The notes under the pieces: model-generated
What the model was told of the DNA's origin: nothing
Seen by the model: the letters and a program-made list of their open reading frames with translations, nothing else
The model's database searches: none
Virus record (IMG/VR): IMGVR_UViG_2639762987_000008
DNA: 4,144 nt
Strand: one strand, 5' to 3'
DNA from: a virus
Taxonomy: Duplodnaviria; Heunggongvirae; Uroviricota; Caudoviricetes
In this document: piece by piece, positions 1-4,144 of the stretch
How the letters are laid out: the number at the start of each line of letters is the position of its first letter
Position numbering within the stretch: the first letter of the stretch is position 1
Program-made: the position numbers and the translations under genes

Positions 1-32
1 TTTTGAACGTTTCAGGCTATTTTTCTCGCGTT

Positions 33-69
33 AGGTTCCCGCACAGGTTCCCACGTTTTATGGGAACCC
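33..69. repeat. Short repeat cluster upstream of the integrase start: AGGTTCCC at 33-40 and 45-52 (direct), and GGGAACC at 62-68 forming a 7-bp inverted repeat with GGTTCCC at 46-52 (9-nt spacer). Possible integrase arm-type/att-proximal sites or an operator for int.
   Basis: Read directly from the sequence: ttAGGTTCCCgcacAGGTTCCCacgttttatGGGAACCcg. Function is inferred from position immediately 5' of the int start; no core att site can be defined from this window alone. Confidence 0.35.
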
Positions 70-88
70 GAAATAACGAGGTCGTGTA

Positions 89-1186
89 ATGGCGTACTAT
101 AACATAGAGAAACGACTAAAATCCGATGGCACACCACGCTATCGCTGTAATGTGATTATCAAAGAAAAAGGGGTTATCACTTACAGGGAAAGCAAAACAT
201 TCCCTAAACATGCTCATGCCAAAACATGGGGCACACAGAAAGTGATGGAATTAGATCTACATGGCATTCCATCATCAAATGCTGTTGACGGGCTTACAGT
301 CCGTGACTTACTACGCAAATATTTAAATGACCCAAATGCCGGAGGTAAAGCAGGCCGTACTAAAAGATATGTGCTGGAACTACTTATGGATAGTGACATT
401 TCTGCGATCAGACTATCTGAATTAACAGAAAATGACGTAATAGAACATTGCAGGTTGAGAAACAACGCCGGTGCAGGTCCAGCTACTGTTAGCCACGATG
501 TTAGTTATCTTGGCAGTGTTCTGGATGCAGCCAAACCTGTATACGGAATTAATTACACATCAAACCCAGCAAAAGCCGCTCGTCCATATCTACTTAAACT
601 TGGTTTAATTGGTAAATCAAATCGTCGTAATCGTAGACCAGCATCTGATGAACTAGACATGCTCATTGAAGGCCTTCAACAACGATCTACTCATAAATGC
701 TCAAAAATTCCGTTCGTTGATATCCTCAAATTTTCTGTGTGGTCCTGTATGCGAATCGGAGAAGTATGCCGGTTACGATGGGAAGATCTCGACCAGGAAC
801 AAAAATCTATACTAGTAAGAGACAGGAAAGATCCACGTAAAAAGGAAGGTAACCATATGAAAGTGGCCTTGCTTGGGGAAGCCTGGGATATCGTCCAACG
901 ACAACCCAAAAAATCTGAATTCATTTTTCCATACAACAGCACTTCTGTTACCGCAGGATTTCAGAGGGTAAGAAGCAAATTAGGTATTAAAGATCTGCGA
1001 TACCATGATTTGCGTAGAGAAGGGGCAAGTCGCTTATTTGAGGCTGGTTTTAGTATTGAGGAAGTCGCCCAGGTTACAGGGCATCGTTCATTAAACGTGC
1101 TATGGCAGGTATATACCGAACTGTATCCAAAATCTTTACATAATCGTTTTGAAGAACTCCAAAGGAGCAGAAATAAGACCTCTTGA
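89..1186 (+). CDS. int: Tyrosine site-specific recombinase (phage integrase family), 365 aa
   Basis: Full ORF with GAGG Shine-Dalgarno 7 nt upstream of the ATG. Box I-like segment (MRIGEVCRLRWEDLD), box II HDLR at 1004-1015, GHRS, and the putative catalytic Tyr in WQVYTE at 1112-1114. The N-terminus (YNIEKR...GTPRYR) is consistent with an arm-type DNA-binding domain. Antisense ORFs within it look spurious. Confidence 0.93.
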   Translation: MAYYNIEKRLKSDGTPRYRCNVIIKEKGVITYRESKTFPKHAHAKTWGTQKVMELDLHGIPSSNAVDGLTVRDLLRKYLNDPNAGGKAGRTKRYVLELLMDSDISAIRLSELTENDVIEHCRLRNNAGAGPATVSHDVSYLGSVLDAAKPVYGINYTSNPAKAARPYLLKLGLIGKSNRRNRRPASDELDMLIEGLQQRSTHKCSKIPFVDILKFSVWSCMRIGEVCRLRWEDLDQEQKSILVRDRKDPRKKEGNHMKVALLGEAWDIVQRQPKKSEFIFPYNSTSVTAGFQRVRSKLGIKDLRYHDLRREGASRLFEAGFSIEEVAQVTGHRSLNVLWQVYTELYPKSLHNRFEELQRSRNKTS

Positions 1187-1206
1187 CACTGTTTATTCAT
1201 ACAGTT
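1187..1206 (+). promoter_or_regulatory. LexA box 1 (SOS box), CACTGTTTATTCATACAGTT
   Basis: CTGT (1189-1192) - 8 nt - ACAG (1201-1204); about 15 of 20 positions match the E. coli-type consensus TACTGTATATATATACAGTA. Confidence 0.6.
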
Positions 1207-1214
1207 AAAAATAA

Positions 1215-1234
1215 TACTGTATACAAACACAGTA
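1215..1234 (+). promoter_or_regulatory. LexA box 2 (SOS box), TACTGTATACAAACACAGTA
   Basis: CTGT (1217-1220) - 8 nt - ACAG (1229-1232) with flanking TA/TA; about 17 of 20 positions match consensus. Lies 14 nt upstream of the ATG of a DinI-family gene, the expected context for a damage-inducible gene. Confidence 0.75.
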
Positions 1235-1247
1235 TAGAGGGATTTTT

Positions 1248-1496
1248 ATGCGTATTGAGATCTGCATAGCCAAAGAGAAAATGACTAAAATGCCAAACGG
1301 TGCTGTGGATGCGTTAAAGGAAGAATTAACTCGACGCATCAGTAAGCGTTATGACGATGTAGAGGTGATCGTAAAAGCCACCAGCAACGATGGCCTTTCT
1401 GTTACGCGCACCGCCGATAAAGATTCAGCTAAAACTTTTGTTCAGGAAACTCTGAAAGATACCTGGGAGTCTGCTGACGAGTGGTTTGTTCATTAA
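1248..1496 (+). CDS. dinI: DinI-family DNA-damage-inducible protein (RecA modulator), 82 aa
   Basis: Protein MRIEICIAK...GAVDAL.EEL.RRI...LSV...[17 protein letters not shown] aligns by eye along its whole length with E. coli DinI (MRIEVTIAK...GAIDALAGELSRRI...LSV...QETWESADDWFV). Preceded by an RBS and two LexA boxes. Confidence 0.9.
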
Positions 1497-1562
1497 TTAA
1501 TACGTAAAATCGATAACGGCTGGAAATCATTCAATACTCGCACTATCGGAAGTTCACCAGCC

Positions 1563-1603
1563 AGCCGCAGTATTCTGCCATGACAAGTTGCTGCGGCTTT
1601 TTA
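1563..1603 (+). terminator. Putative rho-independent terminator for the int-dinI transcription unit: stem AGCCGCAG (1563-1570) / CTGCGGCT (1591-1598) followed by TTTTTAT
   Basis: 8-bp GC-rich inverted repeat followed by a T-run on the + strand. The loop is long (20 nt), so stability is uncertain. It sits between the convergent dinI-like gene and the 3' end of the - strand operon (stop at 1607-1609). No comparable T-run follows the hairpin on the - strand. Confidence 0.45.
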
Positions 1604-1606
1604 TGT

Positions 1607-1894
1607 TTAACGGATAAACAGCCAGACCAGCAGACACGCCATCACCGGCACAGCAAAATCCATCAGGCTTGCTACATCCCACACGCGCGGATCAAAACCG
1701 CCCCACCACGGCATATTCATACGCTTGCCATGTCCGAACATTTCAATCCAGCGATATTCTGCCTGGGTGTGTTCACGCGCAATGAAGAACGTACAACCGG
1801 CTATCGCCCCGTAAGCCCAGTTTCCGGTAAAAAGGCCAATCAGTACCTGTGCAGCCACAGCACAAAGTGCATGAAGGAAAGGTGTTATATCCAT
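1607..1894 (-). CDS. Small polytopic inner-membrane protein (95 aa, about 3 predicted TM helices), function unknown; last gene of the - strand operon
   Basis: Strong RBS (AAGGAGGAG) 4-5 nt upstream of the ATG at 1894, 10 nt after the TAA of the upstream gene. Hydrophobic segments FLHALCAVAAQVLIGLFTG, AYGAIAGCTFFIA and VASLMDFAVPVMACLLVWLFI. No lipobox or clear signal peptide. The overlapping + strand ORF 1580-2056 looks like an antisense artefact. Confidence 0.7.
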   Translation of the reverse strand: MDITPFLHALCAVAAQVLIGLFTGNWAYGAIAGCTFFIAREHTQAEYRWIEMFGHGKRMNMPWWGGFDPRVWDVASLMDFAVPVMACLLVWLFIR

Positions 1895-1904
1895 TACTCC
1901 TCCT

Positions 1905-2609
1905 TTATCCGATATCGCTTCGGGAAGTTGATAACAACTTTAATTCTGACTCAAGTTCATCAACTCTTTCAGTCAGTTTCTGGATATGGTGAATCAGTGG
2001 AACAACCAGACGTTCGTACATTACACCTTCGGCAACAAGGCCATTGCTGGAAATAGCTTCAGGAGCATCATTCTCGTTAGCTGGTCGCCAGTGAACAAAC
2101 TGAGGGGCAATTTCTCCTACTTCCTCGGCAATCAATCCATAGAATCCCCAATCGCGCCTGTCATTTTCGCATTGCGACCTGTACCACACAGGGCGCATCT
2201 TGAAAATGAGATCGGCGTGCTCCGAATCTATCGTCTCTACTGAATGTTTATAGCGGATAGACGATGTGGACCGCAGTACAGACGAAATTGCGGGGTCAGG
2301 ATTAAGATAAAGGTTTGCCGCCGCTGTAGTCGTGCCCAATCCCCACAAATAAAACGCTTCACGACCAGTCAGCGGGTAAAAATCTCCACCATAACGACCA
2401 CTTTCCAGATCGTTCACTTCCACTTTGTTTTTCAGCTTATTATCAACTTCAGTTTTTGTGTATCTGGTGCTGATATCCTGCTTTGCACTGGTCATATCAG
2501 TCTGAAGCGTTGATACTTTTCCGTTAATTGAGGAAATATCTTCCTTGGCTTTACTGACATCTCCCTTTAACGTGGTGATGTCTCCTGGAATTACTGTCGA
2601 TGTAGCCAT
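1905..2609 (-). CDS. Tail-fibre-like protein, 234 aa: N-terminal heptad/coiled-coil-like segment plus C-terminal intramolecular chaperone domain (peptidase S74 / endosialidase-chaperone-like)
   Basis: RBS GAGGGAG upstream of the ATG at 2609. Motif S-S-I-R-Y-K (aa 116-121, nt 2247-2264) matches the S-x-x-R-x-K autocleavage/catalytic Ser-Lys signature (SDERLK in K1F endosialidase). Downstream GFYGLIAEEVGEIAPQFV ... LVVPLIHHIQKLTERVDELESEL resembles the GVIAQEV...LVPLLIEAIKEL...LE core of the chaperone domain, as I recall it from memory. Confidence 0.78.
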   Translation of the reverse strand: MATSTVIPGDITTLKGDVSKAKEDISSINGKVSTLQTDMTSAKQDISTRYTKTEVDNKLKNKVEVNDLESGRYGGDFYPLTGREAFYLWGLGTTTAAANLYLNPDPAISSVLRSTSSIRYKHSVETIDSEHADLIFKMRPVWYRSQCENDRRDWGFYGLIAEEVGEIAPQFVHWRPANENDAPEAISSNGLVAEGVMYERLVVPLIHHIQKLTERVDELESELKLLSTSRSDIG

Positions 2610-2618
2610 TTGTCTCCC

Positions 2619-2900
2619 TCACATCCAGCCACGAAGTTGATGCTCAACAACAATCGCGTATTTATCGAATATTGACGATTTTTTTGCATCATTAATGATG
2701 CGCACGTTTACAAAATATCCGTCTTCCTTAACACATACCGGTTCGCCATCTTCAGTCAGTTCTCCGCTTTCTTTGTACACGTTACCTATCACGTCAATAA
2801 GAATATCATCCTGCATCGACTCGTCATCATAATAGCCAATACTCTCCATAAAGGCCGAAAAGTCGGCCCTGTCTGCAAATTTGAGTGTTAAATCTTTCAT
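2619..2900 (-). CDS. Small acidic hypothetical protein, 93 aa, translationally coupled to the upstream fibre-like gene
   Basis: Its ATG (2900-2898) overlaps the TGA (2899-2897) of the upstream gene as ATGA; a GGGGAGAG RBS-like sequence lies upstream. Strongly Asp/Glu-rich. Followed 9 nt later by the next gene. No recognisable motif. Confidence 0.6.
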   Translation of the reverse strand: MKDLTLKFADRADFSAFMESIGYYDDESMQDDILIDVIGNVYKESGELTEDGEPVCVKEDGYFVNVRIINDAKKSSIFDKYAIVVEHQLRGWM

Positions 2901-4144
2901 TTAATACTCTCCCCCATTTGCGCATCAGTTAATTCTTTATGCCAGATACGCAGATTACGGATATGACCAAAAAGATGATACTCCCCATTAGTGCCCTGCC
3001 CTCCAATTCGCAATACTGCCCGTGGAACAATTGAAGTCCATGTTGTTTTTGCCGCAACAGATAATTCACCATTACATACGGCCTGAACATCTCCATCAGC
3101 GCCACAACGTAAGCCTGAAATGATTTTCCTCTGGGTTGTTGCCACATATTTATTACACCCTCCCATAGAAATAAAAGGAGAACCGGCATCAGAGAAATTA
3201 TTACCACGGAATCCATGCGTGAACAGACCATTTTCCTGATAATCTTTAACATTAAAGATTAATGGTGATTTGCTGGGAGGGATATCCCAGTTTTTATTAA
3301 CTTCAACAAGAGCACTGAATGGTAATCGGTGAATATTGTTTCTTACAGGTATTGTCACCATGTCGCTGGAGCGAGTGCCAGGAGCCCCTTCAGTAATGAT
3401 AAATGACGTCCTGTACGACCCAATCTCCGCCTGAGGCATCGCAATATCTAACGTAGAGCCATTGGGGATAATACTGATTCCAGGCATCGCCAGGATTTCA
3501 AATCTTGAGCTGATTATCATTTCCNNNNNNNNNNNNNNNNNNNNNNNNNNNNNNNNNNNNNNNNCTGCATCTGAATGAAAAACAAACGCACCATTATCAG
3601 ACATTTTTCCGAACCTTGCACGACACCGGGAATTATCACTTTTCGTCAGACACGATATCGTCGTATAAGAACCTGCCGGGCAGGTGTAAGCATCATTCGT
3701 GTTTACAGCAATTGCCTGATATCCTTGTGCTGTCGGATTTTCATTAATAACAGTTATCCTTCCATAGTTAAACCCATTATCACTGTCGAACGACTCAACA
3801 GACACACTACCCGTGTTATTCCATGCTTCTGGTGTATTTGAATTTCTGAAATAGTTTGTTCTCTGTCCTTCAATCAGCAAACCTTCTCGTTCAAATCGCG
3901 GTTCGTCAACTTCAGCAACGGTTAATACACCTGATTTATTAATGTATGTTGCACCTGATGCGCGTTTGAAGCTAACAACCTTATCGGATGGCATTTTAAT
4001 AACATCATCACCTACAGTTATTTGCTTATAACCAGGCGAAAAGCCAGCAAGCATATCCAGTGAATCGTTAAACGGTATCCACACATCAGGCAGTGGCTGT
4101 AAGACATATTTATACGGCTCTGCTGCCTGGCTTGCATACTCTCT
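2897..4144 (-). CDS. Phage tail-fibre / receptor-binding-like protein with C-terminal LamG-type (concanavalin-A-like lectin) domain; 5'-partial, as the reading frame stays open to the window edge at 4144
   Basis: The reading frame is open from 4144 (upstream of the GTG at 4084 there is no stop: ...REYASQAAEPYKYVLQPLPDV-WIPFNDSL...) to the TGA at 2897-2899. The C-terminal signature ...LRIGGQGTNGEYHLFGHIRNLRIWHKELTDAQM (nt about 2915-2977) resembles the LamG_3 family ending (F.G.IDEVRIWNRALS..EI). Frame is maintained across the N run at 3525-3564. Confidence 0.72.
   Translation of the reverse strand, partial: REYASQAAEPYKYVLQPLPDVWIPFNDSLDMLAGFSPGYKQITVGDDVIKMPSDKVVSFKRASGATYINKSGVLTVAEVDEPRFEREGLLIEGQRTNYFRNSNTPEAWNNTGSVSVESFDSDNGFNYGRITVINENPTAQGYQAIAVNTNDAYTCPAGSYTTISCLTKSDNSRCRARFGKMSDNGAFVFHSDAXXXXXXXXXXXXXXEMIISSRFEILAMPGISIIPNGSTLDIAMPQAEIGSYRTSFIITEGAPGTRSSDMVTIPVRNNIHRLPFSALVEVNKNWDIPPSKSPLIFNVKDYQENGLFTHGFRGNNFSDAGSPFISMGGCNKYVATTQRKIISGLRCGADGDVQAVCNGELSVAAKTTWTSIVPRAVLRIGGQGTNGEYHLFGHIRNLRIWHKELTDAQMGESIK
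3525..3564. other. Run of 40 ambiguous bases (N): masked or unresolved sequence inside the fibre-like CDS
   Basis: Seen directly. The flanking reading frame is conserved, so the run probably replaces 40 real bases rather than marking a gap of unknown size. Confidence 0.95.

Follow-up and report, generated by a model that had tools for sequence, protein, structure and literature searches.

On the vegetative map of phage lambda, int lies between the side-tail-fiber/b region and xis-exo and is transcribed in the direction of the leftward early operon. Because the lambda attP is located downstream of int, int and xis share one end of the prophage, with J and stf at the other. Here, we analyzed a stretch of viral DNA of 4,144 nucleotides (IMG/VR record IMGVR_UViG_2639762987_000008, Caudoviricetes), hereafter called the window, in which an integrase gene (int) and its neighbor dinI stand directly beside a tail-fiber-type cassette. 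An initial annotation, made from the letters alone, had measured this arrangement against a lambda-like prophage and offered three readings of it. Our results indicate that the window almost certainly covers the int-proximal end of a ~39.3-kb lambdoid prophage that is complete, belongs to the mEp460 / 1720a-02 type, and entered the 5′ end of the host gene dusA by means of a DusA-associated tyrosine integrase. The layout is not anomalous; it is the normal and already known architecture of a published family.

The closest described systems integrate into dusA. DusA-associated integrases were defined by Farrugia et al. (2015), who found them next to the dusA 5′ end in over 200 bacteria. The family is characterized by 21-bp semi-conserved repeats at the junctions and by an element-derived dusA 5′ end, and E. 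coli “phage lysogens” are contained in the supplementary table of that study (PMC4482086). Balasubramanian et al. (2019) reported that phage 1720a-02 integrates 100 bp into dusA, that a phage-encoded dusA′ open reading frame (ORF) rebuilds the gene, and that upon induction attP circles form only with an intact int. The seven-base core of the motif TCCAGTCGAGCATGGGAGC was identified as the crossover site, and the orientation of the prophage, with int adjacent to attL, was called noncanonical (PMC6328086). In a dusA-integrating island of Vibrio, the int promoter is constitutively active and the excision factor is PrtN-like (PMC8409611).

The dusA-integrated prophage and its int-fiber layout

ORF listing and profile searches of the window revealed that int and dinI, on the plus strand, converge on a fiber-type cassette on the minus strand, as initially described. 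The int gene (89-1186, +) encodes a DusA-associated tyrosine integrase of 365 amino acids (PF00589, E = 9.6e-21, 74.7 bits against a cut-off of 27.1) with structure matches to XerA/XerC-like proteins, and 361 of 364 residues are identical to the Int of phage 1720a-02. Reading the sequence by eye, we assigned R222, H306-x-x-R309, H332, and Y342 as the putative motif residues. The dinI gene (1248-1496, +) encodes a DinI-like protein of 82 amino acids (PF06183, E = 1.2e-19, 70.8 bits against a cut-off of 24.2; phrog_189). The interval between dinI and the fiber genes (1497-1904) measures 408 bp, in agreement with the gap of about 400 bp noted at first; it is not empty, being mostly occupied by an ORF of 95 amino acids, which leaves 110 bp of true non-coding space (1497-1606). 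A scan of the window for tRNA and tmRNA genes found none, which fits insertion into a protein-coding gene better than insertion into a tRNA gene, and an Rfam search of the window at E ≤ 1 returned no family.

At least 80% of the window was matched in 31 E. coli genomes. All of these matches are chromosomal, and the 25 matches listed are 100.0% identical; the window differs from the matching chromosomes by one base and a masked run. Both of the matches that we inspected, in ST648 and independently in the pig isolate EC19, adjoin dusA, a gene divergent from int that has its start codon on the minus strand, one base before window position 1. Leftward of the window, both chromosomes run on through the body of dusA and then into pspG. 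At the far end of the prophage, a 105-bp dusA 5′ fragment, annotated as a pseudogene, adjoins yjbM/zur. The flanks, to which the initial annotation had pointed for host genes and direct repeats, contained both, with the attachment core present at each junction.

We located this core by a four-way alignment of the uninterrupted attB of K-12, both prophage junctions, and the attP of mEp460_4F5. All four sequences contain the crossover core TCGAGCAT, which corresponds to dusA nt 97-104 and lies at −103 to −96 relative to the window. At the int-side junction, the sequence switches from host type to phage type within TCGAGCAT, and at the far junction it switches from phage type to host type at the same place. 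The core falls inside the published motif TCCAGTCGAGCATGGGAGC (PMC6328086); the K-12 attB sequence for comparison is tccagTCGAGCATtggtgc. When the dusA of the lysogen was compared with that of K-12, 91 of the first 110 nt were identical, followed by 70 of the next 70, indicating that the dusA 5′ end of the lysogen is a phage-derived substitute that keeps the reading frame. The region between the dusA and int start codons (1-88) is essentially the same in the attP of the free phages mEp460, mEp460_4F5, and Lys8385Vzw as at the chromosomal junctions. It shows no relationship to the DNA that precedes dusA in K-12.

The free phage carries a copy of the first ~105 nt of dusA, and this copy contains the attP core. 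The core precedes the int ATG by ~190 bp and separates int from xis, on the side of int that faces away from the fiber genes. This position explains why no att core was found between the int-dinI and fiber modules: the initial annotation was right to see none there, as the core sits on the far side of int, outside the window and 96-103 bp left of position 1. In the Lys8385Vzw record (~4800-4815), the core appears in a tandem duplicate (TCGAGCATTCGAGCAT), which looks like an artefact of circularised prophage coordinates and not like a real attP.

These positions account for the layout. Genes and attP follow one another on the circular phage genome as J - lom - stf - accessory ORFs - dinI - int - attP - two reverse ORFs - xis (PrtN-like) - exo. 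When attP recombines with dusA at nt 97-104, int and dinI remain joined to the tail-fiber end of the late operon, xis and the early genes move to the opposite prophage end, about 39 kb from int, and the phage version takes the place of the dusA start, leaving dusA intact. As attP lies between int and xis, int and dinI adjoin the fiber genes after integration, and this adjacency is identical in the free and the integrated state. With int and xis at opposite ends of the prophage, an integrated phage cannot transcribe the two genes together from the early leftward promoter. Excision that depends on Int and restores dusA would be expected by analogy with the experiment on 1720a-02, whose Int is 99% identical. 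Because the late operon reads in the same direction as dusA, late transcripts antiterminated in an unexcised prophage could continue as antisense through dinI and int and onward into dusA.

The initial annotation had considered a phage or episomal genome as the source of the window, with int and the fiber genes adjacent because attP had not yet been split. Such an origin would agree with the finding that the window holds phage-derived sequence only, and the free phages mEp460, mEp460_4F5, and Lys8385Vzw do show the same int-dinI-fiber adjacency. However, attP lies on the other side of int, so the adjacency does not run across attP and no episome is needed to account for it. Moreover, the matches covering at least 80% of the window are without exception chromosomal, the two inspected ones lie beside dusA, and no phage record reaches 80%. 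An unintegrated genome is therefore very improbable as an explanation of the layout. Some observations nevertheless weigh against a chromosomal dusA prophage as the source of the window. There is no host-specific base in the window, so this particular copy could come from a chromosome or from a free phage genome. No phage record matches more than 61% of the window, and the exact mosaic is known only as a prophage. A DUF968 gene is frameshifted in the ST648 prophage, so that this exact prophage may or may not be inducible. Finally, a scan of region 1-88 for sigma-70 promoters found no match on either strand at the scan threshold, so that the int promoter and the substitute dusA promoter were not located.

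The gene content of the flanks speaks directly to the integrity of the prophage. In both ST648 and EC19, the order to the right of the window is stf, lom, and J, followed by tail, head, portal, and terminase genes; beyond these come genes for lysis, a Q-like antiterminator, replication, cro/cI-like regulators, and a PrtN-family excisionase (xis). The modules of a lambdoid siphophage are thus present (repressor/cro, Q, lysis, terminase, head, and tail with J, lom, and stf). Their identities were taken from the record annotations of the two genomes, the N-terminal domain of Stf (PF08400) being the part confirmed independently. According to a further suggestion of the initial annotation, the window could be what is left of a decayed prophage that had lost all but int and a fiber cassette. 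Decayed forms do exist at this site, as in O157:H7 strain 7636, where a truncated J is fused to early-region remnants. Against this stands the full set from terminase, portal, and capsid through tail, J, lom, stf, lysis, Q, replication, and repressor to xis, spread over ~39.3 kb in two independent isolates, and a remnant is accordingly an explanation to which we give hardly any credence.

The layout is also recurrent. The succession of int, dinI, and convergent fiber or late genes was found in five phage records (mEp460, mEp460_4F5, PhiR55_1, Lys8385Vzw, and 1720a-02), which answers the comparison with related phages that had been envisaged for this locus, and also in O157:H7 strain 7636 and in strain D53-1. 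A 1.9-kb probe spanning dusA, int, and dinI, counted when covered to at least 80%, detected the dusA-int-dinI junction in 731 of 5426 complete E. coli genomes (~13%). A strain-specific rearrangement that brought int beside the fiber genes, for example a Pin/Gin-type invertase inversion or inter-prophage recombination, could draw on the DNA invertases beside the fiber genes of the relatives HannyBb, Tritos, and PhiR63_1, but its probability is negligible, given that no invertase lies in or near the window and that the order recurs in the five phage records and in other genera, with its dusA-int-dinI part in the 731 E. coli genomes.

Outside E. coli, a scan with the Int protein identified 52 loci in Enterobacterales, Vibrio, Shewanella, Aeromonas, and others, and in most of these dusA lies directly upstream of int and is divergent from it. 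We sampled 10 loci and recorded the first large minus-strand gene after int. A tail or tail-fiber gene converges on int in six (Izhakiella, Pluralibacter, Xenorhabdus, Plesiomonas, Shewanella, and Aeromonas); the other four have primase, terminase, or unknown-function genes after int. Int relatives with 58-64% identity from Xenorhabdus, Serratia, and Pseudomonas (loci L029, L031-L040, and L053) have no dusA upstream and presumably use a different target gene.

Together, these data identify the window as part of a prophage type with a different gene order, which was one of the options first considered and the correct one, as judged by the dusA flanks and the same order in related phages. The rule that int and the fiber genes occupy opposite ends of the prophage holds for lambda itself and fails for this dusA-integrating family. 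Since the flanks hold a complete prophage whose order is normal for a described family, the view of the locus as anomalous is abandoned: as a synteny anomaly the layout has no importance, being ordinary in widespread dusA-integrating prophages, including those of Stx and O157 strains. It does provide a rule for annotation, according to which the prophage boundary is to be placed inside dusA, immediately past int, with int as the marker of the late-gene end and xis as that of the opposite end.

Regulatory signals and genes of the cassette

We inferred that int has a promoter of its own, situated in the 88-bp region or immediately to its left, which is consistent with the promoter activity reported for the Vibrio island (PMC8409611). 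For dinI, a promoter-like site was found between the two genes (TTGACA at 1183, an 18-nt spacer, and AAAAAT), the −35 hexamer of which overlaps the int stop codon; the mEp460 record annotates a promoter at the equivalent position. Two LexA-box-like sites of the form CTG-N10-CAG (1189-1204 and 1217-1232) overlap this site, the whole arrangement spanning 1183-1234 on the plus strand. With these predicted LexA boxes, dinI looks to be SOS-controlled independently of int.

The non-coding space downstream of dinI holds a GC-rich hairpin followed by UUUUUAU (1563-1604, +). A consensus scan for short-loop terminators between the modules found none; the hairpin, which has a long loop, emerged only on folding (−17.4 kcal/mol, z = −2.8). 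It is probably the intrinsic terminator of the int-dinI transcript. The int-dinI module that is common to other phages ends at ~1570-1595, i.e. near the hairpin, and the unit up to this point acts like a mosaic module that has been combined with widely differing late ends. In several genomes, RefSeq annotates a “capsid protein” pseudogene fragment just past dinI, corresponding to 27 codons at 1493-1573 (−) of the window, to L009 7908-8027 in O157:H7 strain 7636, and to L010 7894-7981 in D53-1. The fragment, which overlaps both the terminator hairpin and the conserved int-dinI tail, probably reflects a misannotation.

The cassette begins, in the direction of its transcription, with the gene for a side tail fiber (Stf-like), of which the window contains the C-terminal part, roughly residues 345-782 of 782 (2897 to beyond 4144, −); the N-terminal part extends past the window end. 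The full protein in the ST648 genome has 782 amino acids, with an N-terminal PF08400 domain (E = 9.9e-67) and the spike-fiber domain NF048003. A masked run of 40 N (3525-3564) interrupts the gene and stands for 106 real bases in ST648 (L001 23525-23630). As a result, the fiber frame seems to shift, and ORFs read across the mask are artefacts.

The start of the next ORF, which encodes 93 amino acids (2619-2900, −; phrog_1361, E = 9e-46), overlaps the stop codon of the side-tail-fiber gene (ATGA). Its position after the fiber gene is kept in mEp460_4F5 and PhiR55_1, and it possibly serves as a fiber accessory or chaperone. It is followed by an ORF of 234 amino acids (1905-2609, −), a stand-alone gene with a strong ribosome-binding site of its own, which encodes a short fiber-like protein. 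The N-terminal half of the product is coiled-coil, and the C-terminal part is an S74 intramolecular-chaperone domain (PF13884, Peptidase_S74; residues 116-172, 27.5 bits against a cut-off of 22). The protein aligns to positions 1147-1384 of the 1385 in the phrog_3299 profile, i.e. only to the last ~240 residues of long fibers, and matches the C terminus of the L-shaped tail fiber of phage T5 (PDB entry 8hqz, E = 8.5e-7). Because the S74 domain starts at residue 116, the mature product would consist of only ~115 residues of coiled coil if the protein cleaves itself. This ORF is present in PhiR55_1 and absent from mEp460_4F5, and 1720a-02 has a tail-fiber ORF of similar size at the same place.

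The last gene of the late strand is the hydrophobic 95-amino acid ORF (1607-1894, −; phrog_1443, E = 1e-57). It has a strong AGGAGG ribosome-binding site and about three predicted membrane segments as judged by eye. Its position suggests a moron or an exclusion-type membrane protein. A PDB sequence search with this ORF gave chance-level matches only, and PADLOC, NCBIfam, and Pfam assigned no function to either the 93- or the 95-amino acid ORF.

Further variation was observed around the shared genes. In O157:H7 strain 7636, dinI and the fiber gene are separated by three genes for NleG-type (DUF1076) effectors, and the lambda-like tail is decayed (L009 8058-10055); in D53-1, the convergent module is a myovirus baseplate and fiber set (L010 8133-13901). 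At the far end of the ST648 prophage (L003 18724-19925), a Panacea-domain gene and small ORFs on the opposite strand lie between the far junction and the PrtN-like excisionase gene. mEp460 carries two different reverse ORFs at the position of the Panacea gene, marking a variable cargo slot next to attP.

A triple repeat between dusA and int

Region 1-88 is a phage-borne divergent control region that reaches from the substitute dusA 5′ end to int and forms part of the int-proximal attP arm and, in the lysogen, of the junction on the int side. The distance of 88 bp between the divergent dusA and int ATG codons is the same in ST648, EC19, O157:H7 strain 7636, and D53-1. Window position 9, in the substitute dusA leader and eight bases from the dusA start, is G in the window and A in ST648 and in all eight aligned relatives.

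This region contains a triple repeat (33-68, +), consisting of AGGTTCCC at 33-40, a second AGGTTCCC at 45-52, and the inverted GGGAACC at 62-68; the direct copies are 12 bp apart. The heptamer GGTTCCC occurs three times in the window, each time within 34-68, compared with an expected 0.30, and none of 200 shuffles reached three. Only three further copies exist in the ~39-kb prophage. One of these is found ~50 bp from the core on the second attP arm, with GGCTCCC following 11 bp later; the two stand at −253 and −242 from the int ATG (L002/L006). The segment concerned, GGTTCCCAATAGGCTCCCA, is the counterpart of window 25-75 as candidate Int-binding DNA.

In 16 relatives of different genera, the three copies keep their positions at −55, −43, and −27 from the int ATG, and their sequence falls into three classes, GGTTCCC, GCACCCC, and GTACACC. 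Copies 1 and 2 are 84% identical at an offset of 12, compared with 16-38% at neighboring offsets. The dyad formed by copies 2 and 3 is 83% paired, compared with 32-45% in slid controls, and shows 16 double-change cells, compared with 6.0 ± 1.8 in shuffles. We considered an RNA hairpin as the sole cause of the repeat and rejected it, because copy 1 stands outside the dyad and yet co-varies with copy 2; repeated protein-binding sites fit this pattern better.

These data make the repeats candidate arm-type Int-binding sites or a candidate int operator. GGTTCCC and its partner on the other arm would then be bound by the N-terminal domain of Int. Residue 30 of Int, in this domain, is I, Y, and H in the GGTTCCC, GCACCCC, and GTACACC classes, respectively, and no other column of the Int alignment is constant in every class and distinct in each of the three; the association is suggestive and confounded by shared ancestry. 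A single-sequence AlphaFold2 model of Int, with a mean predicted local distance difference test (pLDDT) score of 39, was too poor to judge the N-terminal fold. We tentatively propose, as an idea with slightly less than an even chance of being right, that the repeats are arm-type sites of the DusA-associated integrases that co-evolve with the N-terminal domain of Int. Given their location in the divergent control region, Int bound there would in addition regulate its own gene and affect the dusA promoter substituted by the phage. Repeats upstream of int are not mentioned in PMC4482086 or PMC8409611, and a literature search combining dusA with arm-type returned nothing on dusA-integrating elements. 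The lineage-specific triple repeat may thus be the only new element of this locus, and it offers a concrete, testable candidate for the arm-type sites or the int operator of this integrase family.

Comparison with known phages and elements

Every testable defining feature of the DusA-associated integrase elements was found here: int beside and divergent from dusA, insertion at the 5′ end, imperfect repeats, and a new dusA 5′ end. The prophage of the window departs from the family in no defining trait.

Phage 1720a-02 (Phi-stx2dact, KF030445) resembles the window in having int and a dinI homologue followed by convergent tail-fiber genes and in using the same dusA core. In contrast to the window, it carries stx2d and another fiber and late mosaic, and the DNA similarity ends at about position 1500.

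mEp460 (NC_019716) and mEp460_4F5 (LR595868) are 95-96% identical to the window over 1-1570 and, in the case of 4F5, over 1-1906. Their free-phage order is J - lom - stf - (accessory ORFs) - dinI - int - attP - xis, and both carry GGTTCCC repeats on the two attP arms, like the prophage of the window. They differ from it in their fiber genes, and the 234-amino acid S74 ORF is absent.

Finally, the map position and the transcription direction of int are alike in lambda and in the prophage studied here, whereas the side of int on which attP lies differs. In this prophage, attP does not occupy its lambda-type position, downstream of int and flanked by int and the b region, and it is this difference that produces the observed int-fiber layout.

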